Shown here in pieces: positions 23,401-59,216 of a stretch of DNA of 64,000 nt. Under the pieces are notes generated by a model. The model made no database searches. It was not told the DNA's origin and saw nothing but the letters and a program-made list of their open reading frames with translations. Position numbers and translations under genes: made by a program. Source of the stretch: Clostridia bacterium (GTDB lineage Bacteria; Bacillota; Clostridia; Oscillospirales; CAG-272); NCBI GenBank assembly GCA_017399305.1, contig JAFQDK010000041.1, positions 9,504-73,503 of the forward strand. Reading direction: 5' to 3'. Within the stretch, counting starts at the first letter, position 1; each line of letters begins with the position of its first letter.

Positions 23401-23647
23401 CGCCCTCGCCGTTTACAACACATTTTAAAACGAGAATAGCATCAACGATAGTCACTTCACCGTCTCTGTTTGCATCTGCACTCTCGTTATATGTATCCGA
23501 AACAGTGGCTCTCATTATACGAACGATGTCAGCAAGACTTACCTCGCCGTCACCTGTTGCATCATACTCCTTTGGAGCAGCAAATACACCAAGTACAAGC
23601 ACAAGAGCAAGCAGACTGCATGTTAACAAATATTTCAACCTTGACAT
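20432..23647 (-). CDS. Secreted multidomain protein: N-terminal dockerin, DUF2961/GH172 domain, three C-terminal approx. 141-aa beta-sandwich-like modules
   Basis: Signal peptide from the ATG at 23647 (GGAG RBS). Dockerin 'DATGDGEVSLADIV...DANRDGEVTIVDAIL'. GH172 signature 'WWGEGDEKFFVDGEKFPSWYGTGTEDFF'. Three tandem homologous modules follow. Confidence 0.8.
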   Translation of the reverse strand: MSRLKYLLTCSLLALVLVLGVFAAPKEYDATGDGEVSLADIVRIMRATVSDTYNESADANRDGEVTIVDAILVLKCVVNGEGGNLYSTYSYVDIVERMTDTRILAEGYSGEKSAEFTSYSRTSVYENGVYKNWNSNLDGGTQIPETDDGGHLVADIEGAGYISRIWSATAGTGHIKIYIDGATTPIIDLEFEDFFNRTAAPFTYENLVYEDAARGKNTYVPITFAKSCRIVAYGGFYNETTNPEGWGKYYHVNYTLFPEGTVVESMPKTFSTKQKAALSAVDTFFGSKIGTHPDGYADAAFTKHNVSSASPVIKEFSGAGAISGLLVRINSIDNALPATALEAIEVLKGLHIRIYWDGESEPSVDVPLGDFFGSSYGFDEIQTLLLGVRDDRTLYNYFYMPYLEGAKIEISAKDGITANISVSVNTVDNTVNKDSMLYYNSQFSLGEYAENKNRWPDHRFLYAEGEGRLVGLTLHMDQLIDCTDPKSGLGNLWWGEGDEKFFVDGEKFPSWYGTGTEDFFGYAWCSDQIFSRAYHSQAYCEGRSSYKGNRVMTRIMMHDSVPFTSSFDGYLEKYYADDYTSVGYTSHFYLDKNGTTNRETYTDEEIMSYFVPDGNAYSSNFTEAEQLYVLSRSGSLTSYEQNMIAFGSSWSNVVQLTCNGGAVGDSIELILPAEADGKYMLLASFTKATGYGIVQTSVNGANVGAPVDLYSPTVSADVLYELGEVTLTKGFTNTIAFTVAGKNASARAQNFGVDFVIVVPVSKYNKTSSVDLSQYTNVHRINAKQSGAKEFTYEGEDLLILASVTSGSARKQIMTSYGDSWSGGEQLYWTAGATDATMTVYAHVEKAGDYNVLGGFTTAKNYGKVDIYVNGTKVGSTLDLYSASVGYTTKNVGKVTMKAGDNKIVIKTVGKNASSTGYQSGLDYIKFTEVEGTYLFEGETDLLANASVTSGSTRSQTMSAWGDGWSGGGQLFWTVSAADNTLTTTVSVSKAGTYNISGGFTAAKDYGIIDLYINGTKVGTFDGYSASVTHMTAAFGSATLNAGSNTIEFKITGKNASATKHYVGIDYIKLT
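20435..21790 (-). repeat. Three tandem approx. 141-aa protein modules (putative carbohydrate-binding modules)
   Basis: Modules at 21368-21790, 20858-21283 and 20435-20857 share '..SW(S/G)..QL.....G......V....AG.Y.....FT.AK.YG..D.Y.NG.KVG...D.YSASV.......G..T..AG.N.I..K..GKNAS....G.DYIK.T'. Confidence 0.75.
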
Positions 23648-23672
23648 TTTCAATTCTCCTTTGCATATTTTG

Positions 23673-23701
23673 ATTTTACAATTTAATAATAATTGCAGCA
23701 A
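23673..23701 (-). promoter_or_regulatory. Candidate promoter of the large GH172 gene
   Basis: Minus strand: TTGCTG (23701-23696), a 17-nt spacer, then TAAAAT (23678-23673). Confidence 0.4.
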
Positions 23702-23717
23702 GGTAAGCATTGAATAT

Positions 23718-30773: not shown

Positions 30774-30805
30774 AAAAAAGCAACCTTATAAAAGGTTGCT
30801 TTTTA
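30774..30805 (-). terminator. Terminator closing the Asp-box protein operon
   Basis: AAAAAAGCAACCTT-ataa-AAGGTTGCTTTTT, located 5 nt after the mini-lipoprotein stop. Confidence 0.7.
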
Positions 30806-30809
30806 TTAT

Positions 30810-30929
30810 TTATGGTCTGTATATTGCTGACCAGCCGTCATCGGTAGTCTCTGTCGGCTTATCACCGCAAGCAGTAAAAGCAAACACAAGACTTAGTGCC
30901 ATGCACATAACAATTATTAATTTTTTCAT
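30810..30929 (-). CDS. Candidate 39-aa mini-lipoprotein, translationally coupled to the upstream gene
   Basis: My own translation: MKKLIIVMCMALSLVFAFTACGDKPTETTDDGWSAIYRP*. Signal peptide plus lipobox-like FTAC. The ATG overlaps the upstream TGA (TGATG). The terminator follows this ORF rather than the large gene. Confidence 0.45.
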   Translation of the reverse strand: MKKLIIVMCMALSLVFAFTACGDKPTETTDDGWSAIYRP

Positions 30930-33538
30930 CACTCAAGAACGATTGCAGGCCAACGGTTTGTTGTAAATGCGCTTACACCGGTGAGAGTATCATTGGTGGA
31001 GCCGCTGCCGTCCTGATTAGAAAGAGAAGGATTAACTACAAATGAAGTTGCGCCATCAAGACCTACAAGTGCCTTGGGAATAGCTACCTCGGTAACAACA
31101 CCCTCGTCCTTATCCTCATTGTTACCGGCTGTACCGAAAACCTTTACAACAGCATTGCCGCCGGTAACAGTGTTCTTAGCTGCGCCATTTTCAACATATG
31201 TGATAGAATCCACACCGTTAAGACTTACAACCACGCGGTAGTAGCTACTGGTGCCTGCACCGATACAAATAGTTGTTGTATCGCCCTCGGTGATATAGGT
31301 ATCAAGGCGGGAGATAAGGAAGTAAACATTATTCTTATCATGTGCTGTGCGGAGAGTGATCTGTGCCTGGGTTTCGCTACCTACAAAGAGTGCGTCTGTA
31401 TTTTCGGTCCACTCATTGGTATAACCGTCAACATTTACTGCAACCTTGGGCGCGTTTGTACGGTGGTTGAGGTATGAATAGTAAAGATTAATACCGCGGA
31501 GGTCGCCATTTTTGCAAGGATTAGCTGCAACGAGTTTGTGGCTATCAAGAACCTCAATAGAGCCCCATGAACCTGCAGAATCCTTAGCAGGACGGAATTC
31601 CTTGGAGTCAAGAACACTGCCGTCAGGGCTGACCATTCTTGCACGGAGAACCGCATTGATACCATATGTAAGAACTACCTCGCCCGACTCAAAACGACCT
31701 ACATACGGCGATGCTGCACCGGTTGGAATAACATCTTTATATGTTGTAGTAGGACCTTCTTCGGTGAGATCAAGGTGATCCCATTCGCCGCCATCTTTGC
31801 TTATCGCATATGAGATACGGAAGTCCTTATCAAGTCTCTGAACCTCAACTGCAAGAAGTGACTTACCATTATAAAGCTGAACTGCAGCAGGCATCTGACC
31901 GCCGAAATACGGAACTGCCTCGGTATACATAGGAGTACCGTCGGGATTTGTACCGTAAGGAACCTTGTCGCCGACATATTCCTGGTAAACGCGCTTGCCT
32001 ACATAGTGGCTCTCTTTTGTGGTTTCGGGCGACCATGTATAACCGTTATCATCAGAATAAATCATGGATGTACATGTGGAGCGCTTATCCGAGTCCATGC
32101 CGTAGATGTCAATATAAGCAATCGCGCAAGACCAGTAAACCTCTACTCTGCCGTCATCACGCTGGAAAATGAATGGCTCCCAAACCTGTCCCTTGGTGAG
32201 CTGTACTTCTTCCTGTACGACCTGAGAAGGATAAACCTTTTCTTCAGTGGTACTCCATACAACCTTATTATCCTCAGTAACCTTACCACGAGCCATAAAG
32301 ATACCGTTCATTTCTGCATAATCTGCATAACCGTAACCGGAACTAGGACGGATAGCATATACGCAGAGAATATCACCGTTATCAAGTACGCATGCATCCG
32401 CGTTTACCGCAAGATACTGGTCGTCTTTACCTGCAAGAGGTCCGTATGTATGAGTAAACTTCTTATCGTTGGTAGCTCCCCAGAAAACTTCAGGATTAGT
32501 CCATGTCTGTCCGTCATTGGAATATGCAACGTAGAGATGTCTACCAAACTGACCGTACATCCAGAACATGATGTAGAGGTCGTCCTTAACTTGCTTGATA
32601 CGGGGATACCATGCATTGTCATAACGTGTCTGACCTGTTGTAGAAGAAGTAAGCTCTACATTCTCTCTGAAGTTAATCTCAAGAGAAGATGTAGCGATAT
32701 CATCGTCTGCATGGTCGCCATTTGTGCTCTTCTGGTCGAGATCTTGAATAGCAACAAGCTCTGTTACAGGATTTTCGGGAACTACGGGTTCTGCAGTGTC
32801 GTCTTCACCGATGATATATCCCATTACCTCATTGAACTTATCAGCAGTGTAAAGTCCCTTGTCGAGAAGCTGAACTGCAATGATTTCGCCCTCTTTTACC
32901 TTTGCGCCAAGCGCATTGTAGCAGATTACAAATGCATCGCCACGGGTAAACTCAGCGTCGGGAGTTTCATCACCGATAAGACCAACCTCTTTTGCAAGTG
33001 CATAAGGATTGTTCCATACGAAGTCGCCCTCTGCGTCCTTGTAACCGAGGACACGAAGAATTGCGGTGAGGAATGCATAATCGGTCATACCGCTTACCGC
33101 ATCAAATTTTGTTGCACTTACACCTGCGGTAATCTTATTTACATAAGCATAAGAGATATACGGAACTGCCCATGCGGGAAGGTCAGTAAAAGGATGTGCA
33201 TTTGTCTCGGTTGTAGCCGCCTTCTCTGCACCGAGGAAACGAACTACCTGAGTAATTGACTCTGCTCTTGTAAGGCTGCCGTCAACATCGAAATTGATGC
33301 TTCCGTCAGCATTAGTGCCCTTACCTGCAAGAAGTCCGAGAGCATTAAGTGCCTTTGCCGCCTCTTCTGCGGGAATAGCATACTTATCAATAGGAGGTAC
33401 GCTTGCGTTGGGATTTGGCGCGATGAGCATGCCATCTTTTGCGTTTTCAAACAAATCCTTAGTTTCGCTTGCAAAAACCATCGGCATAACCGAAACAAGC
33501 ATGCATACCGCAATAACAAGGCAAATTATTCTTTTCAT
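30929..33538 (-). CDS. Secreted SLH-like repeats + Asp-box (sialidase-fold) propeller + CBM9-like module
   Basis: Signal peptide. SLH-like 'FTDLPAWAVPYISYAYVNKITAG'. Asp boxes 'SNDGQTW', 'SDDNGYTW', 'SKDGGEW'. C-terminal 'DGYTNEWTENTDALFVGS...VYFLISR'. Confidence 0.7.
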   Translation of the reverse strand: MKRIICLVIAVCMLVSVMPMVFASETKDLFENAKDGMLIAPNPNASVPPIDKYAIPAEEAAKALNALGLLAGKGTNADGSINFDVDGSLTRAESITQVVRFLGAEKAATTETNAHPFTDLPAWAVPYISYAYVNKITAGVSATKFDAVSGMTDYAFLTAILRVLGYKDAEGDFVWNNPYALAKEVGLIGDETPDAEFTRGDAFVICYNALGAKVKEGEIIAVQLLDKGLYTADKFNEVMGYIIGEDDTAEPVVPENPVTELVAIQDLDQKSTNGDHADDDIATSSLEINFRENVELTSSTTGQTRYDNAWYPRIKQVKDDLYIMFWMYGQFGRHLYVAYSNDGQTWTNPEVFWGATNDKKFTHTYGPLAGKDDQYLAVNADACVLDNGDILCVYAIRPSSGYGYADYAEMNGIFMARGKVTEDNKVVWSTTEEKVYPSQVVQEEVQLTKGQVWEPFIFQRDDGRVEVYWSCAIAYIDIYGMDSDKRSTCTSMIYSDDNGYTWSPETTKESHYVGKRVYQEYVGDKVPYGTNPDGTPMYTEAVPYFGGQMPAAVQLYNGKSLLAVEVQRLDKDFRISYAISKDGGEWDHLDLTEEGPTTTYKDVIPTGAASPYVGRFESGEVVLTYGINAVLRARMVSPDGSVLDSKEFRPAKDSAGSWGSIEVLDSHKLVAANPCKNGDLRGINLYYSYLNHRTNAPKVAVNVDGYTNEWTENTDALFVGSETQAQITLRTAHDKNNVYFLISRLDTYITEGDTTTICIGAGTSSYYRVVVSLNGVDSITYVENGAAKNTVTGGNAVVKVFGTAGNNEDKDEGVVTEVAIPKALVGLDGATSFVVNPSLSNQDGSGSTNDTLTGVSAFTTNRWPAIVLE

Positions 33539-33548
33539 AGATTTCTCC

Positions 33549-36065
33549 TTACTTAAGGTTTATTTTTATCCAGGTTGAAGTATCATTAACATCTATACCG
33601 TTGATACGGTCAGTAACATCTGCGCCTGCATCGTAAAGACCGGGACAAACGCTTATGCTGTCACCTGTGAGTCCGAGTGCGGCTCGGTCAAAGCAAAGTT
33701 CGTAAACTCTGCCGCCGGTCGCATTCTTTGTTCCGCCTGTAACACCGGCAGGAAGTGTGTAATCACCGTAACTGATAGTTGCATTGATATAACCGTCTGC
33801 AGTTGCGATGTATACAAAGTTTGTATCTTCCTTGGAATTAGACTTGTCGGTACGGTCAATTGCAACATAGATGTACTTATCGTCATATGCAAAACGGTAT
33901 GCCGCCTGAGCATCAGCAGTAAGACTGCCTACAAAGAGAGCATCTTTGATTTCCTTCCATTCCTGAAGATTACCGTCTGCAACCATATTCTTCTTTGTCG
34001 CGTCAATCGGGTGATTGAGGTGAACCTTACCAAGAACAGTAGTGTTGTGAAGAACCTCATTTCCATCAACTGTTTCGGGAACAACACCTTTATATCTCTT
34101 ATACGACATAGATACAAGTGCAACATGCGAACCTATCGGTGTAGCATGACTCCAGAAGCCACCGTCTGTATCTTTATCATTGTAGAAAATATTGGACTCA
34201 TAGGCAGTAGACATGTTGGTTCCGCGATTATTGAGAAGTCTGGCATAAAGCATACTGGAATTGTTATATGTAAGCAAAATCTCACCTGAGACAAATCTCA
34301 TAAGCGTGGGAGCCGCACCTCTGAATACATCGTTCGAGGTATTGGAAGGACCTGCCTCATCGATAGCAAGCTCATTCCATTCGCGTCCTGCATTTGAATA
34401 TGCTTTACTGATCATATGATAACTGCGATCAACTGATCTCGTCTCAGCAACAAGCATCATCTTGTCGCCCTGAGCAAGTTCGATAACACCGGGCATCTGT
34501 CCGTGTACAAACGGAACGCTCTTACCATTTATAGTAAGATTTCCTGCGGCATACTGATATACTCTCTTAGCCGCAAACGGTGCGGAAGTAACATTAGGTG
34601 TCCATGTATTTCCGCCGTCAGTGGAGGAAATCATCGCTACACCGCTTGAACGCATGCTATCCTGGAAGCCATACTTATAAAGCATAGGCGCGATGTGTGT
34701 AAAGTAAATCTCAACATTTCCGTCAGAACGTTGTAAAATCTCTGCCTCCCAGTTCTGACCGTGATAGATAGAAACAGGCTCAGACCACTTTATTGTTGTA
34801 CCGCTTACTGTTCCCTTCACAAGTTCGAGGGTGGAGAGTGCCGCATACTCTTTAAGTGCATAACCTGTGCAAGGACGGCGCGAATATACACAGAGAATAG
34901 TTCCGTCATCAAGCACACAGTGGTCTGCGGTCGTAGCGTAATATACATCTTCTGTTCCCTTAAGCGAACCGGAAGTATGCGTAAATGTGTTATTCGCGGC
35001 ATTGTATAGAACCTTTGGTGCTCCCCAATTTATACCGTCGGTACTTGTTACATAGTAAAGATGCATGCCCTCTTGAGCATAATTGAGCGTCATGAGATAA
35101 AGCTCATCATTTACTTTTGATATGCGGGGATAAAATGCATTCTGGTATCTTGCATGGTCGTTTTCATCAAGAGTTACCATAGAACTTCTGTCAAGCTCGA
35201 TATATGCATTGCCGCCGGCATTTGAATTATTTTTAGAGTCAGTGTTCAGATCGTAAATAGAAGTCTTTGTAGTATAGTTTGAACCTGTATAGGTGGAGAG
35301 CAATGCTGCCGCTGTTTCATCACCTGCTGCCGCCGCCTCGGTAGCAACTGCATATACACTATTGATAGCGCAGCCGTTTGCACTGCCGCTTCTCGAATAA
35401 TATACCGTGCGTTTAACACCGTTTGCATCCGCATAAGTAATATAAGGACGAACTGCAATCTCGTCTGCAAGAGATGCAACATCTACACCGAGTACGGTTA
35501 CTGCAAATGTAATAGTAGTAGTATCTTCAGCATATGTAAACACACCGGGAACTACCGCACCGCTTTTTACATTTGTGCCGCTCTGCTTTGTAAGCTTTTC
35601 AGTTGTGTCAACATTTATTGCCACAACAGCACCATAGCCAATGTCGGTTGCATGTTCATTTTTAGGAGTGAGAGTGCCGTTAAAGCCCTTACGGTTAAGA
35701 GGATTAAGCCCCTCAACTGTACTTCTCAGCTCTTTGTTGAACTTGACCTGGAATCTGATACCGTTTACTTCGGGGGCAAACTCTTCTACCGGTATCGAAA
35801 AACCGTAATTGCCCTTTTCAACAGTTGCACCGTAAACAGTGCCGCTATAGTTCTTATCTGCAGCTTTTGTTACATCAAGTGCCAATGCTGCCTCTTCGGT
35901 TGTAAACCAACCGCCAAAAAGTCCGCCGCCGGGTACAGTAAGGCTTGAAATATCACCTGACGCTGTTTCAACAGTTACCTTAACAGGAAGAGCTGCGGAC
36001 GAAACCACTGCAAACAGTGCCGCAGAAAGACATATTACTATAAAGAATCCTAAAATCTTTTTCAT
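33549..36065 (-). CDS. Secreted unknown N-terminal module + Asp-box (sialidase-fold) propeller + CBM9-like module
   Basis: Signal peptide. 'STDGINW', 'SSTDGGNTW'. 'DGNLQEWKEIKDALFVGS...YRFAYDDKYIYVAIDR'. Paralog of 36433-39039. Confidence 0.7.
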   Translation of the reverse strand: MKKILGFFIVICLSAALFAVVSSAALPVKVTVETASGDISSLTVPGGGLFGGWFTTEEAALALDVTKAADKNYSGTVYGATVEKGNYGFSIPVEEFAPEVNGIRFQVKFNKELRSTVEGLNPLNRKGFNGTLTPKNEHATDIGYGAVVAINVDTTEKLTKQSGTNVKSGAVVPGVFTYAEDTTTITFAVTVLGVDVASLADEIAVRPYITYADANGVKRTVYYSRSGSANGCAINSVYAVATEAAAAGDETAAALLSTYTGSNYTTKTSIYDLNTDSKNNSNAGGNAYIELDRSSMVTLDENDHARYQNAFYPRISKVNDELYLMTLNYAQEGMHLYYVTSTDGINWGAPKVLYNAANNTFTHTSGSLKGTEDVYYATTADHCVLDDGTILCVYSRRPCTGYALKEYAALSTLELVKGTVSGTTIKWSEPVSIYHGQNWEAEILQRSDGNVEIYFTHIAPMLYKYGFQDSMRSSGVAMISSTDGGNTWTPNVTSAPFAAKRVYQYAAGNLTINGKSVPFVHGQMPGVIELAQGDKMMLVAETRSVDRSYHMISKAYSNAGREWNELAIDEAGPSNTSNDVFRGAAPTLMRFVSGEILLTYNNSSMLYARLLNNRGTNMSTAYESNIFYNDKDTDGGFWSHATPIGSHVALVSMSYKRYKGVVPETVDGNEVLHNTTVLGKVHLNHPIDATKKNMVADGNLQEWKEIKDALFVGSLTADAQAAYRFAYDDKYIYVAIDRTDKSNSKEDTNFVYIATADGYINATISYGDYTLPAGVTGGTKNATGGRVYELCFDRAALGLTGDSISVCPGLYDAGADVTDRINGIDVNDTSTWIKINLK

Positions 36066-36082
36066 AAAACTGTCCTTCGCAC

Positions 36083-36418
36083 TTAGTCTACAAGCTTACC
36101 AAGTCCGACATCTTCACCAAGAACATGTCGGATAATAAGCAATACATCGGCAATATTAACTTTTCCGTCAGAGTTTGTGTCTATGCTGTCACGAAGCGAG
36201 CTTGTTTTTGTGCCTGCAACATACTTAATACTTGTCATAGCATCAAGCAAATTCACCTTACCGTCTCCGTTAGAGTCGCCTGCAATATGCTGTCCTATCG
36301 GAAACACAACCTCGTCAGACGAAAACTGTACATAGTTTTCCCCTTCATAAGCCATAGCAAAAACAGAGAAAGTGCAAAGCATTACAGCGCATAAAAGAAG
36401 CGAAACCGTTCTTTTCAT
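36083..36418 (-). CDS. Dockerin-only small secreted protein
   Basis: 111 aa. Signal peptide ('FSVFAMA'), then about 25 aa, then one dockerin with two Ca-binding loops: 'DSNGDGKVNLLD' and 'DTNSDGKVNIAD'. Confidence 0.75.
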   Translation of the reverse strand: MKRTVSLLLCAVMLCTFSVFAMAYEGENYVQFSSDEVVFPIGQHIAGDSNGDGKVNLLDAMTSIKYVAGTKTSSLRDSIDTNSDGKVNIADVLLIIRHVLGEDVGLGKLVD

Positions 36419-36432
36419 GTTTTTCTCCTTAT

Positions 36433-39039
36433 TTATTTAAGATTTATCTTAAGCCATGTAGAAGTATCGCTAAGGGTTGTGCCGTTGATGCGGTCATCAA
36501 CGCCTGTTGCAACATCGGTAAATCCGGGATTTACACGAATGTAGTCGCCTGTGAGACCAAGTGCCGCGCGGTCAAAGCAAAGCTCATATACTCTGCCACC
36601 TGCCGCATTCTTTGTACCACCGGTAACGCCGGCAGGAAGTGTGTAGTCGCCATAAGAAATCTCGGCTTTTACACTGCCTGTGGAAGTAGCAACAAGAACA
36701 TAGTTTGTGTCTTCCTTATTGTTGGACTTATCTGTACGGTCAATAGCAACATAGATATAGTCATCATCATATGCAAAGCGGTATGTCGCCTGAACGTCAG
36801 CAGTAAGACTTCCTACAAAGAGTGCATCGGTAATGTTTTTCCATTCCTGAAGATTGCCGTCTGCAACCATGTTCTTCTTTGTCGCATTGATAGTATGATT
36901 AAGTCTTACCTTACCGATAACTGTAGTGTTATGAAGAACATCACTTGTAGTACCGTCTTCATTTTCTACTGTTTCAGGAGCTGCACCCTGATATTTCTTA
37001 TATGACATAGCGAGGATGGCAGTATGAGAATCGACCGGTGCAGATGCACTCCAGAAGCCGCTGTCTGTTTCGCTTGTCGTATAGAAAGGATTAAGTTCAT
37101 ATGCAGTTGCAATATCGCTGCCTGTCTTGTTGAGCAGGCGTGCATACATCATATTGGAACCTACTCTGTTTGCGTTATATGTAAGGAGAAGCTCGCCGGA
37201 ATCAAATTTCATAAGAGTAGGCGCTGCGCCCTTGAAATTATCTTCCTTGACGTCCGAGGGACCTGCTTCGTCTATACCGAGTTCTTTCCATACTCCATTT
37301 GCACCCGAATAAGCCGCACTTATCATATGGTAACTACGCGAGGTTGTTCTTGTCTCAGCAACAACCATAAGTTTTCCGTTTGAGAGTTCTACTACACCGG
37401 GCATCTGACCGTGATAGAAATTAACTTTGTTCCCGTTCTCAAGAGTAAACTGACCTGCATTATACTGATAAATACGCTTGCCGGCATAGTTGTTTGTACC
37501 CTCTGCATCGGTCTTGGGGGTCCATGTATAACCGCCGTCAGTGGAAGATATCATTGCAACGCCGCTTGAACGCATTGTCTCATCAAACCCGTACAAGTGG
37601 ATCATCGGCGCAGAATGAGACCAGTAGATCTCAATATTTCCGTTTGAACGCTGAATTATTTCAGGCTCCCAGCTGTGTCCATAGTAAACAGGTGTGGGTT
37701 GGCCCCATTTGACGGTAGTTCCACTCACGGTTCCTCTGACGACCTCAAGAGTGTGAAGTCCGGTATACTCGTTCGAACCGTAGCCCTTTACTGCACGGCG
37801 GGAATATACGCAAAGTATAGTACCGTCATTAAGTACGCAATGGTCAGCAGTTGCCGCAAAGAATTGGTCGGAGGTACCTGCAAGAGAACCGGTAGTATAT
37901 GTATTTGCATTGACCGCCGAACTTGATGCATATAATAGCTTAGGATCCGCCCATGTTTTACCGTCTGTACTTGTTGTATAATATAAGTGCTGACCTGTCT
38001 GATTATAGTTGAAGGTCATGAGGTAAAGGTTGTCCTTAACCTTTGTAATACGGGGATAAAATGCATCCTGATATCTGTAATGGTCGTTTTCGTCAAGCGT
38101 TGTAAGAGTGGTTCTGTCAAGCTCAACATATGCATTGTCATTATCCGCGCTTCCGGCCACAGAAGACAGGTTGAATGAAGCGATAGTAGACTTTGTAGTA
38201 TAGTTAGTACCTGTATATGTGGAAATCAGATTACTTGCCGCTGCCTTTTCATTTTCGGTAGCGTTTTCGTCAGCTACAACAAGGTTTGCAATCTCATAAA
38301 GGCTTGCCGCATATGCATTGTTGGCAGAGCCGGTTTCGGTATAGTAAACAGTATGCTCATTGCCGTTTGCATCCGCATATGTAACATATGGGCGCGCCGC
38401 TATCTTATCAGCGACAGCCGCAGTTTCAATACCGATAACAGTTGCAGTATAGGTGATGCTTGCATCATCCTCAGAATATACGTATACACCGGGAACGCAC
38501 ATACCGTCTGTTACTGTTGTACCGTCAAGCTTTGTAAGTTTTCCCTCGGTTTCAACATCAATGGCAAGCACCATGCCGTAACCGATGCCAGTCTTATACT
38601 CATTCATAGGATTGAACGTGCCGCCCTTGCCCTTGCAATTAAGCGCATTCAGTTTTTCAATCACACTTATAAGCGCCTTATCGATCTTGGCAAGAAAACG
38701 CACGCCATATGGCTCATCGGTACGCATCTGCACTCCTATGAGCTGAAGATCATCAGCATCAAGTGCAACGACCGCACCGTATACCGTTCCGTCGTATCCG
38801 TTGGATGCAGCTTTTGCAATATCAAGTGACTTTGCAGCAGCTTCACTTGTGAACCAGCCGCAGAAAAGCCCGTCCTCACTCACGGTGAGCGACGAAAGCT
38901 TTGTTGAAGCCGAAGATGTCGCAGTAACAACCGTGATGTCACCCATATTATTAACAGGGAGGTCGGTTGCAAAAGCTGTAATCGATGTCATAAGCATAAA
39001 AATGACAAGCAAAAACGACACTATTCTTATGTTTTTCAT
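36433..39039 (-). CDS. Secreted unknown N-terminal module + Asp-box (sialidase-fold) propeller + CBM9-like module
   Basis: Signal peptide. 'STDGKTW', 'SSTDGGYTW'. 'DGNLQEWKNITDALFVGS...YRFAYDDDYIYVAIDR'. First gene of the operon. Confidence 0.7.
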   Translation of the reverse strand: MKNIRIVSFLLVIFMLMTSITAFATDLPVNNMGDITVVTATSSASTKLSSLTVSEDGLFCGWFTSEAAAKSLDIAKAASNGYDGTVYGAVVALDADDLQLIGVQMRTDEPYGVRFLAKIDKALISVIEKLNALNCKGKGGTFNPMNEYKTGIGYGMVLAIDVETEGKLTKLDGTTVTDGMCVPGVYVYSEDDASITYTATVIGIETAAVADKIAARPYVTYADANGNEHTVYYTETGSANNAYAASLYEIANLVVADENATENEKAAASNLISTYTGTNYTTKSTIASFNLSSVAGSADNDNAYVELDRTTLTTLDENDHYRYQDAFYPRITKVKDNLYLMTFNYNQTGQHLYYTTSTDGKTWADPKLLYASSSAVNANTYTTGSLAGTSDQFFAATADHCVLNDGTILCVYSRRAVKGYGSNEYTGLHTLEVVRGTVSGTTVKWGQPTPVYYGHSWEPEIIQRSNGNIEIYWSHSAPMIHLYGFDETMRSSGVAMISSTDGGYTWTPKTDAEGTNNYAGKRIYQYNAGQFTLENGNKVNFYHGQMPGVVELSNGKLMVVAETRTTSRSYHMISAAYSGANGVWKELGIDEAGPSDVKEDNFKGAAPTLMKFDSGELLLTYNANRVGSNMMYARLLNKTGSDIATAYELNPFYTTSETDSGFWSASAPVDSHTAILAMSYKKYQGAAPETVENEDGTTSDVLHNTTVIGKVRLNHTINATKKNMVADGNLQEWKNITDALFVGSLTADVQATYRFAYDDDYIYVAIDRTDKSNNKEDTNYVLVATSTGSVKAEISYGDYTLPAGVTGGTKNAAGGRVYELCFDRAALGLTGDYIRVNPGFTDVATGVDDRINGTTLSDTSTWLKINLK

Positions 39040-39171
39040 AAATACCTCGTAAGCCTAATTATTCATCTTATATTATTATACCATAACTTCATACATCTGT
39101 GGTGTAGAAATTCGGTGCAAAAAACTGTGCAAAATGAAACAATGATGCTTATTCCACCGCTTTTTTGCACA

Positions 39172-39204
39172 AACAAATAAGGACCGCGCATACCGCGGTC
39201 CTTT
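39172..39204 (-). terminator. Terminator of the carboxypeptidase gene
   Basis: Minus strand: AAGGACCGCG-gtatg-CGCGGTCCTT followed by ATTTGTTTG. Confidence 0.7.
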
Positions 39205-40952: not shown

Positions 40953-41036
40953 TTTAGCACGAGGAATTTTGCTTGTTTTTTCGACTAAAATAATGAAGCG
41001 TTACCAAAAGTTGACGTGGCGAAACGGAGGTACAAT

Positions 41037-42386
41037 ATGAAAACTTGCAAACTCAAAAGCACAGCTTTAATAGCTTTGATGTTGGTAGTAGCACTGATCG
41101 GTACTGTAACCACAACGCCGAACGCACAAACAACAATCAATGCCAATGCACTTGCCGTTGCCGAATATCCCGAAATGGCAAAATATCCCGAGCACGAAAT
41201 GCAGATAGGGTTCGATAATAGATACGATGAATGGTGGGCTGATCAGAAAAAGCAACGCTCTTTCTACGGTGCTGGAGAGGGGCTTGACGGCTTCTTTACA
41301 AAAACCTTTGCTGAGTTTCTTTCAGACAGTGAAAACAAAAACGCTGTTTATTCGCCGCTTAATGTTTACATGGCACTTGCCATGCTCGCCGAAACAACAG
41401 AGGGTGAAAGCCGTGCGCAAATACTTGACTTGCTCGATGCGGACAATATCGAAGCACTGCGTAAGCAGGCCAATTTCATTTGGAATGCAAACTACTCGGA
41501 TGACGGTGCTGTGACAAGTATTCTCGCAAGCTCGTTGTGGTTAAACAAGGACATAACATTCAAGCAGTCCACGCTTAAACTGCTCGCTGATAAGTATTAT
41601 GCTTCATCTTACAGCGGAGAAATGGGTTCTGCAGAGTTGAACAGTTCTATAAAAGATTGGATGAACGAGCAAACAGGCGGTCTTCTCAAAGATTACATAT
41701 CGGGAATCGAACTGTCTCCGGAAACTATCATGGCGCTTGTAACCACGATATATTTTCAGGCGAAGTGGGAGAACGAATTCTCCGAGAGAAAAACAGTTGA
41801 CGATATATTCCATACCGCAAACGGAGATATAACCTGTAAGTTTATGAATACCACAGAAACTTACGGTAACTATTATTGGAGCGACACTTTCTCTGCAACC
41901 AGACTTTCTCTGCAAAACAGCGGTAATATGTGGTTTATACTACCCGATGCCAATATAAGCATTGACGAACTGCTGAAAAATGAAGCGGCACTTTCCCTTA
42001 TGTGCCAGGATACAAGCAATATAAACCGCAAGTCGCTTAAAGTAAACATTTCACTTCCAAAGTTTGATGTAAGTTCCAAGATGGATCTCACCAAGGGATT
42101 GAACAAGCTGGGAATCACAAATTGCTTTAGCGCAAGCAGTGCAGACTTCTCTCCCCTGCTTGAAACCGAACAACCAATCTGGCTTGACAAGGTTGAACAC
42201 GGCGCACGAGTCGTCATAGACGAAGAAGGCGTAACCGCGGCAGCATATACGGAAATGGTGATGTGCGGCGCCGCGATGCCTCCCGAAGAGGAGGTAGACT
42301 TTGTTCTTGACCGTCCTTTCATTTTCGTAATCACCGGCAGCGACGGATTACCTTTGTTTGCAGGGGTAGTAAACAATCCGGCATAA
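41037..42386 (+). CDS. Serpin-family protease inhibitor, exported
   Basis: Hydrophobic N-terminus. The serpin hinge and reactive-centre loop 'IDEEGVTAAAYTEMVMCGAAMPPEEEVDFVLDRPFIFVI'. The ATG at 41037 has a GGAGG RBS. Confidence 0.85.
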   Translation: MKTCKLKSTALIALMLVVALIGTVTTTPNAQTTINANALAVAEYPEMAKYPEHEMQIGFDNRYDEWWADQKKQRSFYGAGEGLDGFFTKTFAEFLSDSENKNAVYSPLNVYMALAMLAETTEGESRAQILDLLDADNIEALRKQANFIWNANYSDDGAVTSILASSLWLNKDITFKQSTLKLLADKYYASSYSGEMGSAELNSSIKDWMNEQTGGLLKDYISGIELSPETIMALVTTIYFQAKWENEFSERKTVDDIFHTANGDITCKFMNTTETYGNYYWSDTFSATRLSLQNSGNMWFILPDANISIDELLKNEAALSLMCQDTSNINRKSLKVNISLPKFDVSSKMDLTKGLNKLGITNCFSASSADFSPLLETEQPIWLDKVEHGARVVIDEEGVTAAAYTEMVMCGAAMPPEEEVDFVLDRPFIFVITGSDGLPLFAGVVNNPA

Positions 42387-42909: not shown

Positions 42910-44832
42910 TTATCTTTTAACTATCTTAAAACGTTTGCCGACGGCATTCCATTTATCACCGAGTATATCCGGAATTCGCGCGATAAGCTCGCGGTCATAT
43001 ACTGTGGAATCCGGCAATCCAAGTTTTTCAGACCGCTCAGGCAATTCCTCATATGCACAAATGTATGGATGCAACTGCAAAACGGGACAATTGTGACGGC
43101 CTTTACTGATATCAGATGCTTTATATGCATTGACCTGATCAATAGTCGCAGTTTCCCAGCCCTCGGATTCAAGAAAAGCCATCCAGCGATTGTGCTCTGA
43201 ATACGAAAGCATATCCAGCTTTTCTTTTTCAAGATAGTCCTTTAACTCTACCTCCTCGCCATCTGCATCGGCATCTGTATAATCAAGTCCAAGCAATGCC
43301 AATTTATACCTGATGTGCATTGCATTTGCTCTGTTTGAACGCTTGTTCACTTCAAATATCTTGTATCTTCCAAGCGCCGCCTGCACATCAATATCTGCTT
43401 CACTGAATATATCCTCATAAACAAGATGCACGTTTTTTGAGAGCTTCTCGATATCGGAATCAACAAGATTGTTGTATGTATAAATATCTCCGTAATAACC
43501 AAACGGCGTTATATCATAACTCGTGCGGCGTTCGGGATTAGCTTCGGAAGTCTGAAGATTTCTCACCATTTTAGCTTTATCCGAATACCGGATATATGCG
43601 TATATCGGAGGAGCATTTTTATACTCGCTATCAAATTTATAAAACATTCGGCGAAGTAGAATGGCTATATTTACGGTTTCCTCATCATTCTCACGGTTGA
43701 CCACAATATAGTTTGCGTCGCGGCAATGCTTGTCAACGGTATCTGCAAAATCCTTATCGCCTATACATGAATAAAACTCCACATCGTATCTATCCGTAAA
43801 GAGACCGGGAAACCAGAGTTTCATATTTTCAATCTCTTTTTCTATGTCGATGCCAACAACCCTGACTTTGAGTTTGTATCCGGCAAGTTGACCGCACCAA
43901 AGTGCCGCACGCAAAAATGCCTTATCGAGCTTATCCAAGCCGCAAAGCAGAATAGATATCTCACTGTTTGTTGCATGTTTATACAACGGATACTCATTCA
44001 ACAAATCATACGCTATCGTTTCTATCTCATTGACAACATGAATGTCAATATTGCCTTTATCCGAAGAATCAATCATAATATCAACATTGTCGCCATCTGC
44101 AAACAGAAAAACATGAATCTTCTGCTGAACCTCTGTCGGAAGATCTCTTGAATCGTTTATAAGATCAAGAGTGTGATTGAGGTTTATATCAGAATCACCT
44201 GTAATACAAAAATAATAAATCTCTTTGTCTGCAACATGCTTTATCTGAATAGACTCTATGCTCTTTTCATAAACAATGCAGTTAAGTTCCTGTTGCAGAA
44301 CATTTTTTTCTGCAACGCCAGAAATATCAGAAAACACGATATCGCATTTCCCTATAGTTTCGCGGATGTTACGGGCAAGTGCCTCAGACTTGTTATTTAT
44401 CTCAGAAAACACAAATATGGGGCGTCGTCTGTGATTAACCACCGACAAACGGACTGTTGCAAGAAAATGCAACACCAAAGTAATCGCCGACACTGCGGAA
44501 ACCGCAGGCAAAGCGATATGAACAAATCCCAGAAGCGCTATGTATATCTTCTCAAAAAGTCCAAATCCGATACTTGCAGTTATAAAATCATACCAATCGA
44601 GGCATCCGGACTCAAGTGAGATTACCTGCAAAATGTTATAAAGGCTGCCCCATACAGCAGCTATAGGCTCATATCCAATAAAAAACGGCGGTATGTATAA
44701 TATATACGTTGAGACTGTAAACAAAACAAATATATAGAATACTTTTTTACTGCCATGTTTTGTGTCAACCGAAACCATAGCAGTGACAACAAAAAGCATT
44801 ACAGCCGCAATAGCACATATATACCAAATCAT
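42910..44832 (-). CDS. Membrane protein with two Rossmann-like modules and a C-terminal RyR domain
   Basis: About 4 N-terminal TM helices. 'RPIFVFSEINNKSEALARNI' and 'ISILLCGLDKLDKAF'. C-terminal 'SEHNRWMAFLESEGW...LHPYICAYEELPE...YDRELIARIPDIL'. Confidence 0.65.
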   Translation of the reverse strand: MIWYICAIAAVMLFVVTAMVSVDTKHGSKKVFYIFVLFTVSTYILYIPPFFIGYEPIAAVWGSLYNILQVISLESGCLDWYDFITASIGFGLFEKIYIALLGFVHIALPAVSAVSAITLVLHFLATVRLSVVNHRRRPIFVFSEINNKSEALARNIRETIGKCDIVFSDISGVAEKNVLQQELNCIVYEKSIESIQIKHVADKEIYYFCITGDSDINLNHTLDLINDSRDLPTEVQQKIHVFLFADGDNVDIMIDSSDKGNIDIHVVNEIETIAYDLLNEYPLYKHATNSEISILLCGLDKLDKAFLRAALWCGQLAGYKLKVRVVGIDIEKEIENMKLWFPGLFTDRYDVEFYSCIGDKDFADTVDKHCRDANYIVVNRENDEETVNIAILLRRMFYKFDSEYKNAPPIYAYIRYSDKAKMVRNLQTSEANPERRTSYDITPFGYYGDIYTYNNLVDSDIEKLSKNVHLVYEDIFSEADIDVQAALGRYKIFEVNKRSNRANAMHIRYKLALLGLDYTDADADGEEVELKDYLEKEKLDMLSYSEHNRWMAFLESEGWETATIDQVNAYKASDISKGRHNCPVLQLHPYICAYEELPERSEKLGLPDSTVYDRELIARIPDILGDKWNAVGKRFKIVKR

Positions 44833-44957: not shown

Positions 44958-47900
44958 TCAGTAAAGTCTGAGTGCTGCAGCGACGGTCTGCTCTGCTGTG
45001 CACATGGTATGCGGCGAGAATTTATCATCGCCCATTCCAAGCATGATTCCTGCAGCGCGCATATTGTATACACTTTCCTTTGCCCAGTCGGCAATAGCGC
45101 TGTCATCAGCGTATGTATAGCCGTCCGGGGTAACGCTCTTTCCGCCAAGTCGGTAAACTCTGTCAAGGATAGTTGCAACCTCTTCGCGGGTAATATACGC
45201 GTCGGGTGCAAACTTTCCGTTGCCCTTGCCGTAGATAACGCCGAGGGTGCTCAGCGCCTTAACCGCTTCGCTATCGGTATCGGTAAAGTTTATTGCTTGA
45301 GCGGTTGTACTTGCGAGTGCGGTTTTAACAGCAGGAAGATTATACACTATCTCGCAGAAGCCCTCGCGTGTGATATTCTTACGATAAAGTGGCGGATTCT
45401 CATATTCGATAAGCCCTTTATCAAGTGCGATGAGCACTGTTTCACCTGCCCAATCCGACGGATTGTTGTAAACACACTTTACAAGGCGTTTGCCGAGCGG
45501 TCCCGCCTTGCCGAGATTTGTGTATACAAACGCAAGTTTGTTTTCAAAATCTCCGCCATAGCACCACACATTGTTTGACTCAAGAACGATATCGCCGTCT
45601 TCATTGATATACGATGTATCGCCGTATCTACCGTAGATGATATTCTGTACCACAGGTGCCATGCCGCCGCTGAATTTATCCTGAACATAGTAGCCGTGCG
45701 GAAGTGTGATCTTCACCTTGCCGGTATTATCAATATATCCCTCAAAGCCGCGCTTTGATATGCCGACATAACCGTTATCGCCAATATCGGTTACATGAGT
45801 ACAGCCGGACGCTAAAACTCTGCCGCTTGCGTGCACCACAGCAAAAAGTCCGCCACGGTATACTTTGAACATATCGTCACCGAGATATGTTATATCGCCT
45901 ATTGCCGGCTCTATCACGGTTTCACCTTTGATATTTACAACGCCGAGTTCGTTCATTTCATCGCCGGAAACGATGAGATAATTCTCATTAACGATATTCT
46001 GTATATATCTTTCGCCAAGATCCAATAAAAGCTCAAAGTTCTTGTTATATATCTTCGAGCCAACTATATAATATCCGGTATAATCGGTATAAACATCAGG
46101 CTTTGAGGCAAACGGCTCTTTGTTGAGCTCGTTTCCGTCAGCGTCAACAACATACCAGCCGCCGTCACGCTTTGCGGCAAACTCCTTGTCAAGGAACCAC
46201 ACAAGTTCATAAGGTGTTCTTGAGCCTAAAATATAGTATTTACCGTCATTTTCTTTGCAGTAATACTGACCGATATTTCCAAGATAGAACTCTGCAAGGC
46301 CTGCAGTTTCTTCAAGCGACCAATCATAAACTATTCTTTCACATGCAGGAGAACGCGAAACAATCATTACAGAATTATCATAGACTATAGCAATTTCCTG
46401 CTCACCCTCAATAATCTGCTTATACTCGCCCTCTTTGAGCGTCATCATAACATCGTTTTCGGTATCGCGTATCTCTACGGTATCACCCTCGTTAAAAATA
46501 CAAGTGCCGTAAACCAAAACTTTATTATCGGTTGGTCTGCCTTTAAGGTCGAAATAACGCTCGGTGCCATCCTTCATACTGAAGACATAGCCGCCGTCAC
46601 GCTTAGCAATCGTGCTGACCTCGCCGTAGAAATCAATATACTCAAATTCCCAGAGCGGTACTGACTTTTCAGGTATGTACTTCACCACACCGTAACGATT
46701 ACCGTCAGTCACGGTGAAAAACCCCTCATGCTCGGTACTGCCGAACGAAGAATAGCTTGTTGTCACCTTGTCGGAAAGAGTGAATACGACCTTGCCGGTA
46801 GTATCTACAAACTTGCCGTTTTCGATATAAGCAATTCCGTTGTTAAATCCCTGCGACCAGTTTTCAGGATTGAAAACAACTTTGCCGTCAGTGTCAATTA
46901 CTTCATGTGTCCATACACCGTCAATACAGCTTGATGCAAAGGCATATCCCTCAGCATAGTTTGAAACCATACGGTATTTGAACTCAGTTATCTCGTTGCC
47001 GAAAAGGTCATAGTATCCTGAATGGTCATACGACTTTTGTGCCTTGATAATACCGTCTGAGATATCATAAATATTGGTATGCTCTATAGGCAAAACAAGA
47101 TTGCCGCTAAAATCGACAAGGCCGTAAAGTTTCGGATACTCATCTTTATCCTCACGTGTATTGTCTATCGACACCTTAACGAGTGAATAGTCATAGAATA
47201 CGTTAGCTATCTCATACTCGCACGGCTCCATCATAACGGTTTTGCCGTCGGATGCAACAACTCCGTATTTATTGCCAATCTGTACCTTGTAGCACTTAAG
47301 ATACCCGTTGTCGGTTATCGGCTCAATGTAGTCATACGCAAAAGGCGTAAGAATATTACCGTCATAGTCAATGATGCCATGCTTGCCGTCCTTAACAGCT
47401 ACAACAGAATAGCTGTCAGCAGTAAAAGCATATATCTTATCATACTCAGGCTTTATTGCAACATTGAAGCCATGATCAAGTGCACCGAACTTGCCATTTT
47501 CCTCAAATACAAGTCTGCTGCTGTCAAAGGTCAGTCCGTATCCGGCATTTTTATCCGGAACAAATCCGTCATACGGAAGAACTTTTAGCCGGTTTCCCTG
47601 ATAATCACAGATTGCGAACTCACCTTCATAATAGAAAATAGGTCTGCCGTCATTATTATTTCCAAGGTCTATAAAAACAAAATTGTTTGAAAGAGAGATA
47701 AACTCTTTCCCAAAAGTGCCGACCACCTGACCGTTGTAATTAATAATTTCATAAGTGTCACCGAGTTTACCGACACCCATACCATGATCATTGAAGTAAA
47801 GGCTGTCATAATCCTTGGTGAGCTTGTCACCTTTGAGGTCATATGCAGCTACCTTTTCATTTTCATCAAGAGCAATAATACGGCGACCTGTCACATAAAA

Positions 47901-48017
47901 CGAATCAAACTCTATTCTGCCGTATTCTGTAGGAAGTATATATTCAAATGTACCGACGGCACTTATTCCAAATGTCAAAACAAGGCATGCTGCCATAAAC
48001 ACTATAAATTTTCTCAT
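44958..48017 (-). CDS. WG(KWG)-repeat beta-propeller-like protein with C-terminal SLH-like wall anchors
   Basis: Signal peptide from the ATG at 48017 (GGAGG RBS). Many 'G(K/R)xG(V/I)(V/I)Dx.G..(V/I).P.(Y/F)D' units. C-terminal 'FTDTDSEAVKALSTLGVIYGKGNGKFAP...TREE'. Confidence 0.7.
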   Translation of the reverse strand: MRKFIVFMAACLVLTFGISAVGTFEYILPTEYGRIEFDSFYVTGRRIIALDENEKVAAYDLKGDKLTKDYDSLYFNDHGMGVGKLGDTYEIINYNGQVVGTFGKEFISLSNNFVFIDLGNNNDGRPIFYYEGEFAICDYQGNRLKVLPYDGFVPDKNAGYGLTFDSSRLVFEENGKFGALDHGFNVAIKPEYDKIYAFTADSYSVVAVKDGKHGIIDYDGNILTPFAYDYIEPITDNGYLKCYKVQIGNKYGVVASDGKTVMMEPCEYEIANVFYDYSLVKVSIDNTREDKDEYPKLYGLVDFSGNLVLPIEHTNIYDISDGIIKAQKSYDHSGYYDLFGNEITEFKYRMVSNYAEGYAFASSCIDGVWTHEVIDTDGKVVFNPENWSQGFNNGIAYIENGKFVDTTGKVVFTLSDKVTTSYSSFGSTEHEGFFTVTDGNRYGVVKYIPEKSVPLWEFEYIDFYGEVSTIAKRDGGYVFSMKDGTERYFDLKGRPTDNKVLVYGTCIFNEGDTVEIRDTENDVMMTLKEGEYKQIIEGEQEIAIVYDNSVMIVSRSPACERIVYDWSLEETAGLAEFYLGNIGQYYCKENDGKYYILGSRTPYELVWFLDKEFAAKRDGGWYVVDADGNELNKEPFASKPDVYTDYTGYYIVGSKIYNKNFELLLDLGERYIQNIVNENYLIVSGDEMNELGVVNIKGETVIEPAIGDITYLGDDMFKVYRGGLFAVVHASGRVLASGCTHVTDIGDNGYVGISKRGFEGYIDNTGKVKITLPHGYYVQDKFSGGMAPVVQNIIYGRYGDTSYINEDGDIVLESNNVWCYGGDFENKLAFVYTNLGKAGPLGKRLVKCVYNNPSDWAGETVLIALDKGLIEYENPPLYRKNITREGFCEIVYNLPAVKTALASTTAQAINFTDTDSEAVKALSTLGVIYGKGNGKFAPDAYITREEVATILDRVYRLGGKSVTPDGYTYADDSAIADWAKESVYNMRAAGIMLGMGDDKFSPHTMCTAEQTVAAALRLY

Positions 48018-48133
48018 ATAAAATCCTCCTTTTGCTTTTTCTATATTAATTTTACCATATAAAGCTACGTTTGGCAACAGGTATTATTATCTCCGCAAAT
48101 GCATATACATTTATCAAAAAACGGAGGATAGCC

Positions 48134-56082: not shown

Positions 56083-56099
56083 TACTTTCCCCTCCAAAA

Positions 56100-57566: not shown

Positions 57567-57654
57567 AATATTACTCCTTTCAAAAAGCAGAAAAATATTT
57601 TGCTGATTCCATGATAATATATTTTTTGTACATAGTAAATATCAAAAAAACGAT

Positions 57655-57668
57655 TTTTTGTACAAAAA
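57655..57668. promoter_or_regulatory. Perfect 14-bp palindrome TTTTTGTACAAAAA upstream of the GH43 gene (candidate operator)
   Basis: Exact inverted symmetry. A half copy TTTTTTGTACA lies at 57622-57632, and the near copy TTTTTGTATAAAAA at 59203-59216. Confidence 0.4.
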
Positions 57669-57683
57669 TTAAGAGAAAAGCGA

Positions 57684-59126: not shown

Positions 59127-59216
59127 AACATTATCCTCCTGCAAAACCTTATACTATTATGATACATCAAAGCATGGTGGCGGTAAATACTAAAAGCATA
59201 TTTTTTTGTATAAAAA

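Follow-up and report, generated by a model that had tools for sequence, protein, structure and literature searches.

Exo-α-L-1,5-arabinanases of family GH93 work with carboxylates in place of an arginine triad and a tyrosine, and they act on the plant cell wall. Classical sialidases of family GH33 are defined by three arginines, a tyrosine/glutamate nucleophile pair, and an acid/base aspartate (PMC12018670). AmGH181 departs from this definition: its propeller carries two arginines plus a glutamine, with His/Gln in place of the tyrosine, and it is still an active sialidase (PMC10067855, PMC12018670). Here we analyze a five-gene locus, genes A to E, in a 64,000-nucleotide (nt) stretch of DNA (the window) from a Clostridia bacterium (CAG-272; assembly GCA_017399305.1, contig JAFQDK010000041.1, positions 9,504 to 73,503 of the forward strand). 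The locus encodes three paralogous propeller proteins (A, C, and D), a free dockerin (B), and a micro-lipoprotein (E).

A, C, and D are predicted to adopt the sialidase-type six-bladed propeller fold. The residues conserved in their family form neither the GH33 Arg triad nor its Tyr/Glu pair, from which we infer an exo-glycosidase that works through carboxylates. Our reading, to which we give about even odds (0.5), is that the three are surface-displayed exo-glycosidases of an uncharacterized family, acting on an external glycan other than a classical sialoglycan; the family probably consists of uncharacterized glycosidases mislabeled "exo-alpha-sialidase." Gene structure, fold, domain identities, and the conservation of all five genes are shown here; co-transcription, catalysis, the kind of substrate, and a physical link between the enzymes and B or E are proposed. 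What would be new is a candidate glycosidase family and two previously unremarked conserved small genes; the sialidase superfamily fold and the anchors are already known.

Five genes, three of them for related propeller proteins

The genes, with their predicted domains and borders, are as follows.

36433-39039, minus strand: gene A, 868 amino acids (aa); signal peptide, unassigned N-terminal β-sandwich, six-bladed propeller, CBM9-like module
36083-36418, minus strand: gene B, 111 aa; signal peptide and type I dockerin, nothing else
33549-36065, minus strand: gene C, 838 aa; architecture as A
30929-33538, minus strand: gene D, 869 aa; signal peptide, three S-layer homology (SLH) repeats, propeller, CBM9-like module
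30810-30929, minus strand: gene E, 39 aa from ATG; micro-lipoprotein
39179-39203, minus strand: hairpin terminator of the upstream Peptidase_S11 gene, 5' border of the A-E unit; 10-bp stem with 7 GC pairs, then ATTTGTTTGT
39075-39083, minus strand: candidate extended -10 (TGgTATAAT), about 36 nt 5' of the A start codon, read by eye
30775-30804, minus strand: intrinsic terminator at the end of the A-E unit; 13-bp stem, then the T run TTTTTTGTATTT

A sequence-only reading of this DNA had proposed five closely packed minus-strand open reading frames (ORFs) with one stop/start overlap, and the ORF list and our reading of the junctions agree: the A-B, B-C, and C-D gaps are 14, 17, and 10 nt, and the D stop overlaps the E start as TGATG. 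The AAGGA(G)-type ribosome-binding site that it placed before every gene is present for B and D (AAGGAG) and for C (GAAGGA), and not for A, which has GAGG, or for E, which lacks a Shine-Dalgarno sequence of its own and relies on the D-E overlap. Hairpins had been suggested on both flanks as well, and a scan places them at 39179-39203 and 30775-30804. Terminator-like sites in the region are no more frequent than chance (8 found, 7.9 expected); these two are its longest stems and lie exactly at the block borders. The candidate -10 sits between the upstream hairpin and A, where a promoter scan called no promoter at 39075-39083 because the -35 is weak (ACCACA). Together, the gaps, the TGATG overlap, the hairpins, and the conserved gene order suggest that A to E form a single transcription unit. 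A 417-aa antisense ORF at 32006-33259 on the plus strand lies wholly within gene D; we attribute it to codon composition and do not count it as a gene.

A and C are 59% identical over their full length, and A and D are 33% identical over A residues 322-868, from the YPRI block to the C terminus. The signal peptides and Asp boxes claimed earlier for the three large proteins are found in their translations, with two canonical Asp boxes in each. The shared YPRI, GQMP, and DG..EW..DALFVGS blocks are likewise present as quoted, and only in the D.CVL.DG.ILCVY block does D differ, at one residue (DACVLDNGDILCVY). The propeller of A maps as follows.

36904-38076, minus strand: propeller of A, approximately residues 322-712, with Asp boxes at 357-363 and 499-506

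Single sequences gave little. Pfam returned nothing significant for A or C and only sub-threshold BNR_2 and SLH matches for D, NCBIfam had no family match for A, C, or D, and searches of the PDB with each of the three found nothing significant. Because these searches were nearly blank, profiles were needed. An AlphaFold2 model of A residues 296-868, built with 21 homologues, shows a six-bladed propeller followed by a β-sandwich (predicted local distance difference test [pLDDT] score, 90.2; predicted template modeling [pTM] score, 0.89). In a Foldseek search of the PDB, the top match of this core is 5hx0, an uncharacterized Dyadobacter protein (E 3e-12); GH33 sialidases and a KDNase come next (NanA, 7p1s, 7lbu, and 1eus; E ~1e-8, with a TMt of 0.67 for 1eus), and GH145 and PL42 propellers lie lower down. 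BNR_2 scores 23.8 bits for the A core and 19.1 bits for D against a cut-off of 31.4, and full-length A and C have no match; distant relatives pass the cut-off (e.g., P0081 at 39 bits; relatives are given P numbers and related loci L numbers). In a family alignment of 75 sequences, which includes the three window proteins and whose members are 24-35% identical to A (C, at 67%, excepted), 71 have BNR_2 at E ≤ 1e-3. The sialidase-type propeller that had been read from the Asp boxes is thus borne out by the model, by Foldseek, and by the relatives.

In an exhaustive search, the profile of the propeller and C-terminal module matched 635 representative clusters at E ≤ 1e-3, of which 232 reached E ≤ 1e-30. 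The top-scoring clusters are mostly about 550-630 aa long and align across nearly the whole of this profile. Where relatives are named, the names are "exo-alpha-sialidase" (from the Prokaryotic Genome Annotation Pipeline [PGAP]), "S-layer homology domain-containing protein," or "hypothetical," and the named relatives all come from uncultured Clostridia, Oscillospiraceae, or Rikenellaceae. Species-representative carriers are metagenome-assembled genomes (MAGs) of roe-deer colon, goat rumen and caecum, and human gut, with up to six hit loci per MAG. Dockerins occur in many family members. The family propeller is also fused to other domains: to a GDSL esterase and GH43 in P0102 (3256 aa), and to Esterase_PHB or Abhydrolase_2 domains plus a dockerin in P0147 and P0155. 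Paralogues may be clustered, as in L011 (292-13803), where four BNR_2 paralogues are interleaved with GH5, an aldose 1-epimerase, and a DUF5107/TPR protein, and in L043 (4541-15278), a tandem row of four SLH-type paralogues. Literature searches on 5HX0/Dfer_1899, on BNR_2 with dockerin, and on stand-alone dockerins yielded nothing relevant, and the mucinolysome paper (PMC12997984) does not treat this propeller family.

Conserved residues and the sialidase question

The following residues of the propeller of A stand out, with their conservation across the 75 sequences.

Y328 and R330 (YPRI block): 100%
D399: 83%
R415: 92%
Y420: 92%
E458: 100%
Q545: 99%
M546: 100%
E562: 100%
E616: 100%
H672: 93%

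Conserved arginines are limited to R330 and R415, and three glutamates are invariant. The motif around R330 is YPRI, not RIP; by sequence conservation, an Arg triad that includes (F/Y)RIP is not discernible. Past residue 472 there is no tyrosine conserved at ≥75% in the alignment, and blades 5 and 6 keep only W663 and H672; a Tyr nucleophile with a Glu partner in the last blades is not discernible from conservation either. With only two conserved arginines, and with no conserved tyrosine in blades 5 and 6, the family lacks the catalytic signature of GH33. Blades 4-6, searched as a profile, have no sequence match in the PDB, and A, C, and D match no curated sialidase model, whether BNR_2 above its cut-off or an NCBIfam sialidase. 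These observations uphold the earlier suspicion that the proteins are not ordinary sialidases, and on this conservation pattern we would not file A, C, and D under GH33.

The broad family profile does reach GH33 structures at E 1e-12, but its alignments to them are one blade out of register and depend on the Asp boxes. It also reaches GH93 3a71 at E 7e-6 and 5hx0 at E 6.6e-6. The match to 3a71 is weak and lies near the propeller start (profile positions 86-229 against residues 22-172), and 3a71 is absent from the Foldseek top 50.

The annotation may nevertheless be correct, in which case A, C, and D would be non-canonical exo-sialidases or hydrolases of related 2-keto-3-deoxy acids, for example Kdn, Kdo, DHA, pseudaminic acid, or legionaminic acid; we consider this unlikely. 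Such enzymes would resemble GH181, with two arginines and a glutamine holding the carboxylate and an activated water replacing the Tyr nucleophile, and would serve to harvest host mucin or microbial nonulosonic acids. PGAP gives relatives this name, and GH33 supplies the best characterized structural and profile matches, yet the profile alignments are the blade-shifted ones just described. The two conserved Arg, one Gln, and one His recall R234, R305, Q367, and H349 of AmGH181 (PMC10067855, PMC12018670), but they follow a different order along the chain (the constellation in AmGH181 is E218, R234, R305, D345, H349, Q350, and Q367), and neither GH181 structure, 8AXI or 8HLS, ranks within the best 50 Foldseek matches or the best 60 from the profile. 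Mucin is available to the hosts, which are bacteria of the ruminant and human gut; against this, sialic-acid (nan-type) catabolic or transport genes are adjacent to none of the loci examined, and in some members the family core is joined to GH43 or esterase domains.

Surface modules and two small genes

The three large proteins end in a second domain.

36436-36903, minus strand: CBM9-like C-terminal β-sandwich of A, residues 713-868 (LNH...DGNLQEW...DALFVGS)

This module had been likened to CBM9, and the likeness comes through relatives. Pfam CBM9 has no match in A, C, or D themselves, and the top PDB match of the family profile, the Thermotoga CBM9 1i82, aligns on DG..EW..DALFVGS with a non-significant E of 0.069. 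CBM9_1 is found, however, in 11 of the 75 aligned sequences (best E 1.2e-12) and exceeds the Pfam cut-off in P0075, P0095, and P0111. By transitivity, calling the C-terminal modules of A, C, and D CBM9-like appears justified.

The N-terminal modules differ between A and C on the one hand and D on the other.

38185-38952, minus strand: N-terminal module of A, residues 30-285; β-sandwich plus two helices, AlphaFold2 pLDDT 77.9
32894-33391, minus strand: SLH triad of D, approximately residues 50-215, with LTRAE in repeat 1, TDYA in repeat 2, and TRGD in repeat 3

The module of A and C had seemed unassignable, and structure prediction leaves it so: Foldseek finds no PDB match at E ≤ 1e-3, the best being the N-domain of TVAII at 0.039. 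This amylase N-domain and a CBM9 are the best matches, both of low probability. The module was encountered in A/C-type proteins only, and its profile search returned just four fragments. The three paralogues had been credited with different surface-targeting modules; this fails for A and C, which share one and the same β-sandwich; a role of this sandwich in targeting is hypothetical. The sandwich may instead be a carbohydrate-binding module. A cohesin, which would have made it a partner of B in cis, was also considered and rejected, since no cohesin structure is among the Foldseek matches.

For D, the three SLH repeats recognized earlier stand up to profile comparison. Pfam SLH scores D alone at 15.4 bits, below the 20.8 cut-off, and D alone gives weak single-sequence matches to SbsB and SpaA. 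When D and 26 D-type relatives are combined into a profile, it matches the SLH trimer of SpaA from Paenibacillus (6cwc) at E 5.5e-5 over profile positions 33-182, which cover all three repeats, and D orthologues are named S-layer homology proteins. By these comparisons the three repeats of D are a true SLH anchor. Near the operon, at 44958-48077 on the minus strand, a second surface protein with an SLH anchor is encoded (1039 aa, with WG-containing β repeats and a clear C-terminal SLH match, E 4e-17).

B is the dockerin-only protein that the earlier reading had suggested. It matches Pfam Dockerin_1 at E 4.4e-14 (52.9 bits; cut-off, 22.9) and has two DxNxDGxVNxxD calcium-binding loops, DSNGDGKVNLLD and DTNSDGKVNIAD. 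Separate ORFs of about 110 aa, each a signal peptide with a dockerin, occur in nine other loci (L007, L008, L015, L016, L018-L021, and L026), where they mostly begin about 15 nt past an A-type gene and end in GLGxLV; for two of these orthologues compared with the copy in the window, the ratio of nonsynonymous to synonymous substitution rates (dN/dS) is 0.15-0.25. In P0014-P0019, the same dockerin, including its GENY..FS lead-in, forms the N terminus of an A-type enzyme of 943-967 aa. It also runs beyond the GLG motif in L001-L003 and L014 and in a second copy in L015, L017, and L026; the gene calls of L001-L003 show it fused to the enzyme, giving a natural split-versus-fused pair. We rejected a readthrough or frameshift that would join B to C: C lies in another frame (17-nt offset) and has its own signal peptide. 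A broken fusion is further contradicted by the retention of the split in nine other loci and by the dN/dS of ~0.2. These comparisons indicate that B is a maintained stand-alone gene, not a broken fusion, and that it is under purifying selection.

Elsewhere in the window, the minus strand encodes two DUF2961 (GH172) proteins. The one at 20432-23710 (1092 aa) has an N-terminal dockerin and a sub-threshold C-terminal CBM35, so this organism puts an N-terminal dockerin on another carbohydrate-active enzyme too; the one at 18381-19430 (349 aa) has no other domain match.

E has a signal peptide and the lipobox LVFAFTA|C, and its predicted mature form is a 19-residue lipopeptide, CGDKPTETTDDGWSAIYRP. 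The mini-lipoprotein of the earlier reading thus has its lipobox, and it is conserved in eight other loci: L007 (14581-14703), L009 (20619-20738), L013 (10269-10388), L041 (12487-12615), L042 (17053-17118), L022, L023, and L024. In the orthologues the lipobox Cys is followed by a linker that is acidic or rich in Thr, and all end in the invariant motif WSxIY(R/K)P. E-type ORFs lie downstream of a D-type (SLH) gene, and their start overlaps its stop in all three loci checked (L007, L009, and L041). Gene callers left the E-type ORF uncalled in each locus with gene calls (L007, L009, L041, and L042), and the dN/dS of E is 0.19-0.28. On this evidence E is a real conserved gene, predicted to encode a lipoprotein, and the conserved C terminus of E-type ORFs could be a partner-binding or signaling peptide.

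A bolder possibility, which we hold only tentatively, is that A, C, and D are the first members of a new glycoside hydrolase family in the sialidase clan, widespread among Clostridia of the ruminant and human gut, with the three invariant Glu and two Arg as its catalytic center and with an undescribed specificity, and that the lipopeptide and the dockerin in trans are its accessories. A lipopeptide of 19-35 residues (WSxIYRP) would then partner or regulate the SLH enzyme, and the free dockerin, working in trans, would serve as an adaptor or compete for cohesin sites.

Locus history, setting, and known systems

Across the lineage, the family genes lie between YajC and Peptidase_S11 on one side and an amino-acid permease or a branched-chain ABC transporter on the other. 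L007 has gene calls in the order YajC, Peptidase_S11, A, B, C, D, and so does L008 as far as its cut end; in L007, and also in L009, where B is lacking, D is followed by an E-like ORF. The number of family genes varies: L041 has one (an SLH form followed by an E-like ORF), L001 has two, L007, L008, and the window have at least three, and L009 and L043 have four. In P0038 (L042, 10001-14431), an A-type protein and a D-type core are fused into 1476 aa. The simplest reading is that D and E are ancestral, that A and C are lineage-specific duplicates which swapped the SLH triad for a new, family-restricted N-terminal β-sandwich, and that A/C-type duplicates gained a dockerin in some genomes.

In the neighborhoods of twelve related proteins we found no consistent sugar-utilization context, and the locus has no linked sugar transporter, nan genes, or regulator; elsewhere, family members are surrounded by housekeeping genes. 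A 456-aa serpin (Pfam E 6e-71), hydrophobic near its N terminus, is encoded at 41016-42386 on the plus strand, two genes upstream of the operon. Few bacteria have serpins; some cellulosome-producing Clostridia do. Farther away, at 54625-59144 on the minus strand, a GH43 with a 3-keto-disaccharide-hydrolase-like N-terminal domain (56100-57566) is flanked by two sugar ABC solute-binding proteins and belongs to a separate glycan-uptake locus.

The setting also invites the idea that the SLH-anchored D and the lipopeptide E trim or remodel the cell's own secondary cell-wall polymer, S-layer glycan, or capsule, with A and C as later duplicates; we judge this rather improbable. In every lineage genome examined, the locus stands beside YajC and the Peptidase_S11 D-Ala-D-Ala carboxypeptidase, but a strong terminator separates the carboxypeptidase gene from A, and the adjacency may be inherited synteny. 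The variable gene number, with the SLH form and its E-like ORF as the only copy in L041, the housekeeping surroundings of other members, and a consensus Cys at about position 20 of the 75 sequences, which suggests that many members are lipoproteins, all fit such a role. The dockerin fusions, the CBM9-like module, and the GH43/esterase fusions point instead to external polysaccharides, and up to six hit loci per MAG would be more typical of nutrient-acquisition enzymes.

That A, C, and D are non-catalytic propellers (adhesins, lectins, or S-layer-associated structural proteins keeping only the fold) would account for the absent GH33 signature, the scores under the Pfam BNR_2 cut-off, and tandem SLH paralogues that resemble S-layer variant sets (four in L043), but we think it very unlikely, given that R330, E458, E562, and E616 are invariant and Q545, R415, Y420, and H672 near-invariant at 24-35% identity, a degree of conservation that argues for an active site and not a scaffold, and that family members occur within multi-enzyme proteins, fused to true catalytic domains.

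We return to surface-displayed glycosidases. One transcription unit of a gut/rumen Clostridia bacterium (Oscillospiraceae-like) would place three paralogous enzymes on or near the cell surface. D would be fixed to the pyruvylated secondary cell-wall polymer through its three SLH repeats, and E, as a mature lipopeptide, would be translationally coupled to D; B would be secreted as a free dockerin, the counterpart of the N terminus of the A-type enzyme in some relatives. The enzymes themselves would be exo-acting, with carboxylate catalysis and a substrate other than classical sialoglycans. The GH43/esterase fusions, the dockerins, the L011 cluster with its GH5 and aldose epimerase, and the dockerin-bearing GH172 and the GH43 of the window hint at an outward orientation; the fusions and the lack of neighboring sialic-acid genes hint at a dietary glycan. 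Surface display combined with glycan trimming is plausible but unproven.

Several points weigh against this reading. Co-transcription of A to E is a prediction from gene layout. No family member has been characterized, so that an activity is inferred, and R330, R415, Y420, D399, E458, Q545, E562, E616, and H672 make up one pocket only putatively. GH181 sets a precedent in which loss of the Arg triad and Tyr is by itself compatible with sialidase activity; by this analogy the argument against sialic acid is weak, and a non-canonical sialidase is possible. No cohesin was seen among the window ORFs scanned; two large minus-strand ORFs, at 42910-44832 (640 aa) and 60956-63838 (960 aa), have no Pfam or PDB sequence match and no detectable cohesin. 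The mostly housekeeping neighborhoods give no clue to the substrate, and the constant D-Ala-D-Ala carboxypeptidase neighbor suits an envelope role no less than a nutritional one.

Several hundred gut and rumen metagenome clusters, human-gut MAGs included, appear to belong to the A/C/D family. Should the sialidase machinery be missing from the family, as its pattern of conservation suggests, metagenomic estimates of how far these Clostridia can cleave sialic acids and degrade mucin would be inflated, and a glycan-cleaving activity would go uncounted. The locus would offer a compact experimental entry, with three paralogues carrying different N-terminal modules, a split-versus-fused dockerin, and a missed micro-lipoprotein.

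Compared with GH33 (NanA 2ya7, and 1eus of M. viridifaciens), which supplies its best characterized structural matches, the family has the same six-bladed propeller, Asp boxes, and an Arg in the first inner strand (YPRI here, RIP in GH33); unlike GH33, it has no Arg triad or conserved Tyr nucleophile and carries a CBM9-like C-terminal module. It shares with AmGH181 (Amuc_1547; 8AXI and 8HLS) a propeller followed by a C-terminal CBM-like β-sandwich over about 600 aa, and differs from it in the order of conserved residues and in the second domain, which in AmGH181 resembles a galectin, not CBM9, and has an inserted B domain. The closest structure (TMt 0.62, 16% identity) is 5HX0, Dfer_1899 of Dyadobacter fermentans, a structural-genomics entry that is uncharacterized and offers no functional information; its chain of 364-402 residues is too short for a second domain like the C-terminal module of A, C, and D. 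With the GH93 exo-α-L-1,5-arabinanase Abnx (3a71), the proteins have in common a six-bladed propeller of the same superfamily. Finally, the SLH triad on D, the dockerin in B, and the dockerin-enzyme fusions of relatives recall the display systems of cellulosome-type Clostridia. Unlike in those systems, no cohesin was seen in the window, the dockerin is a separate 111-aa secreted protein that is kept so in nine other loci, and a conserved micro-lipoprotein is coupled to the SLH enzyme.

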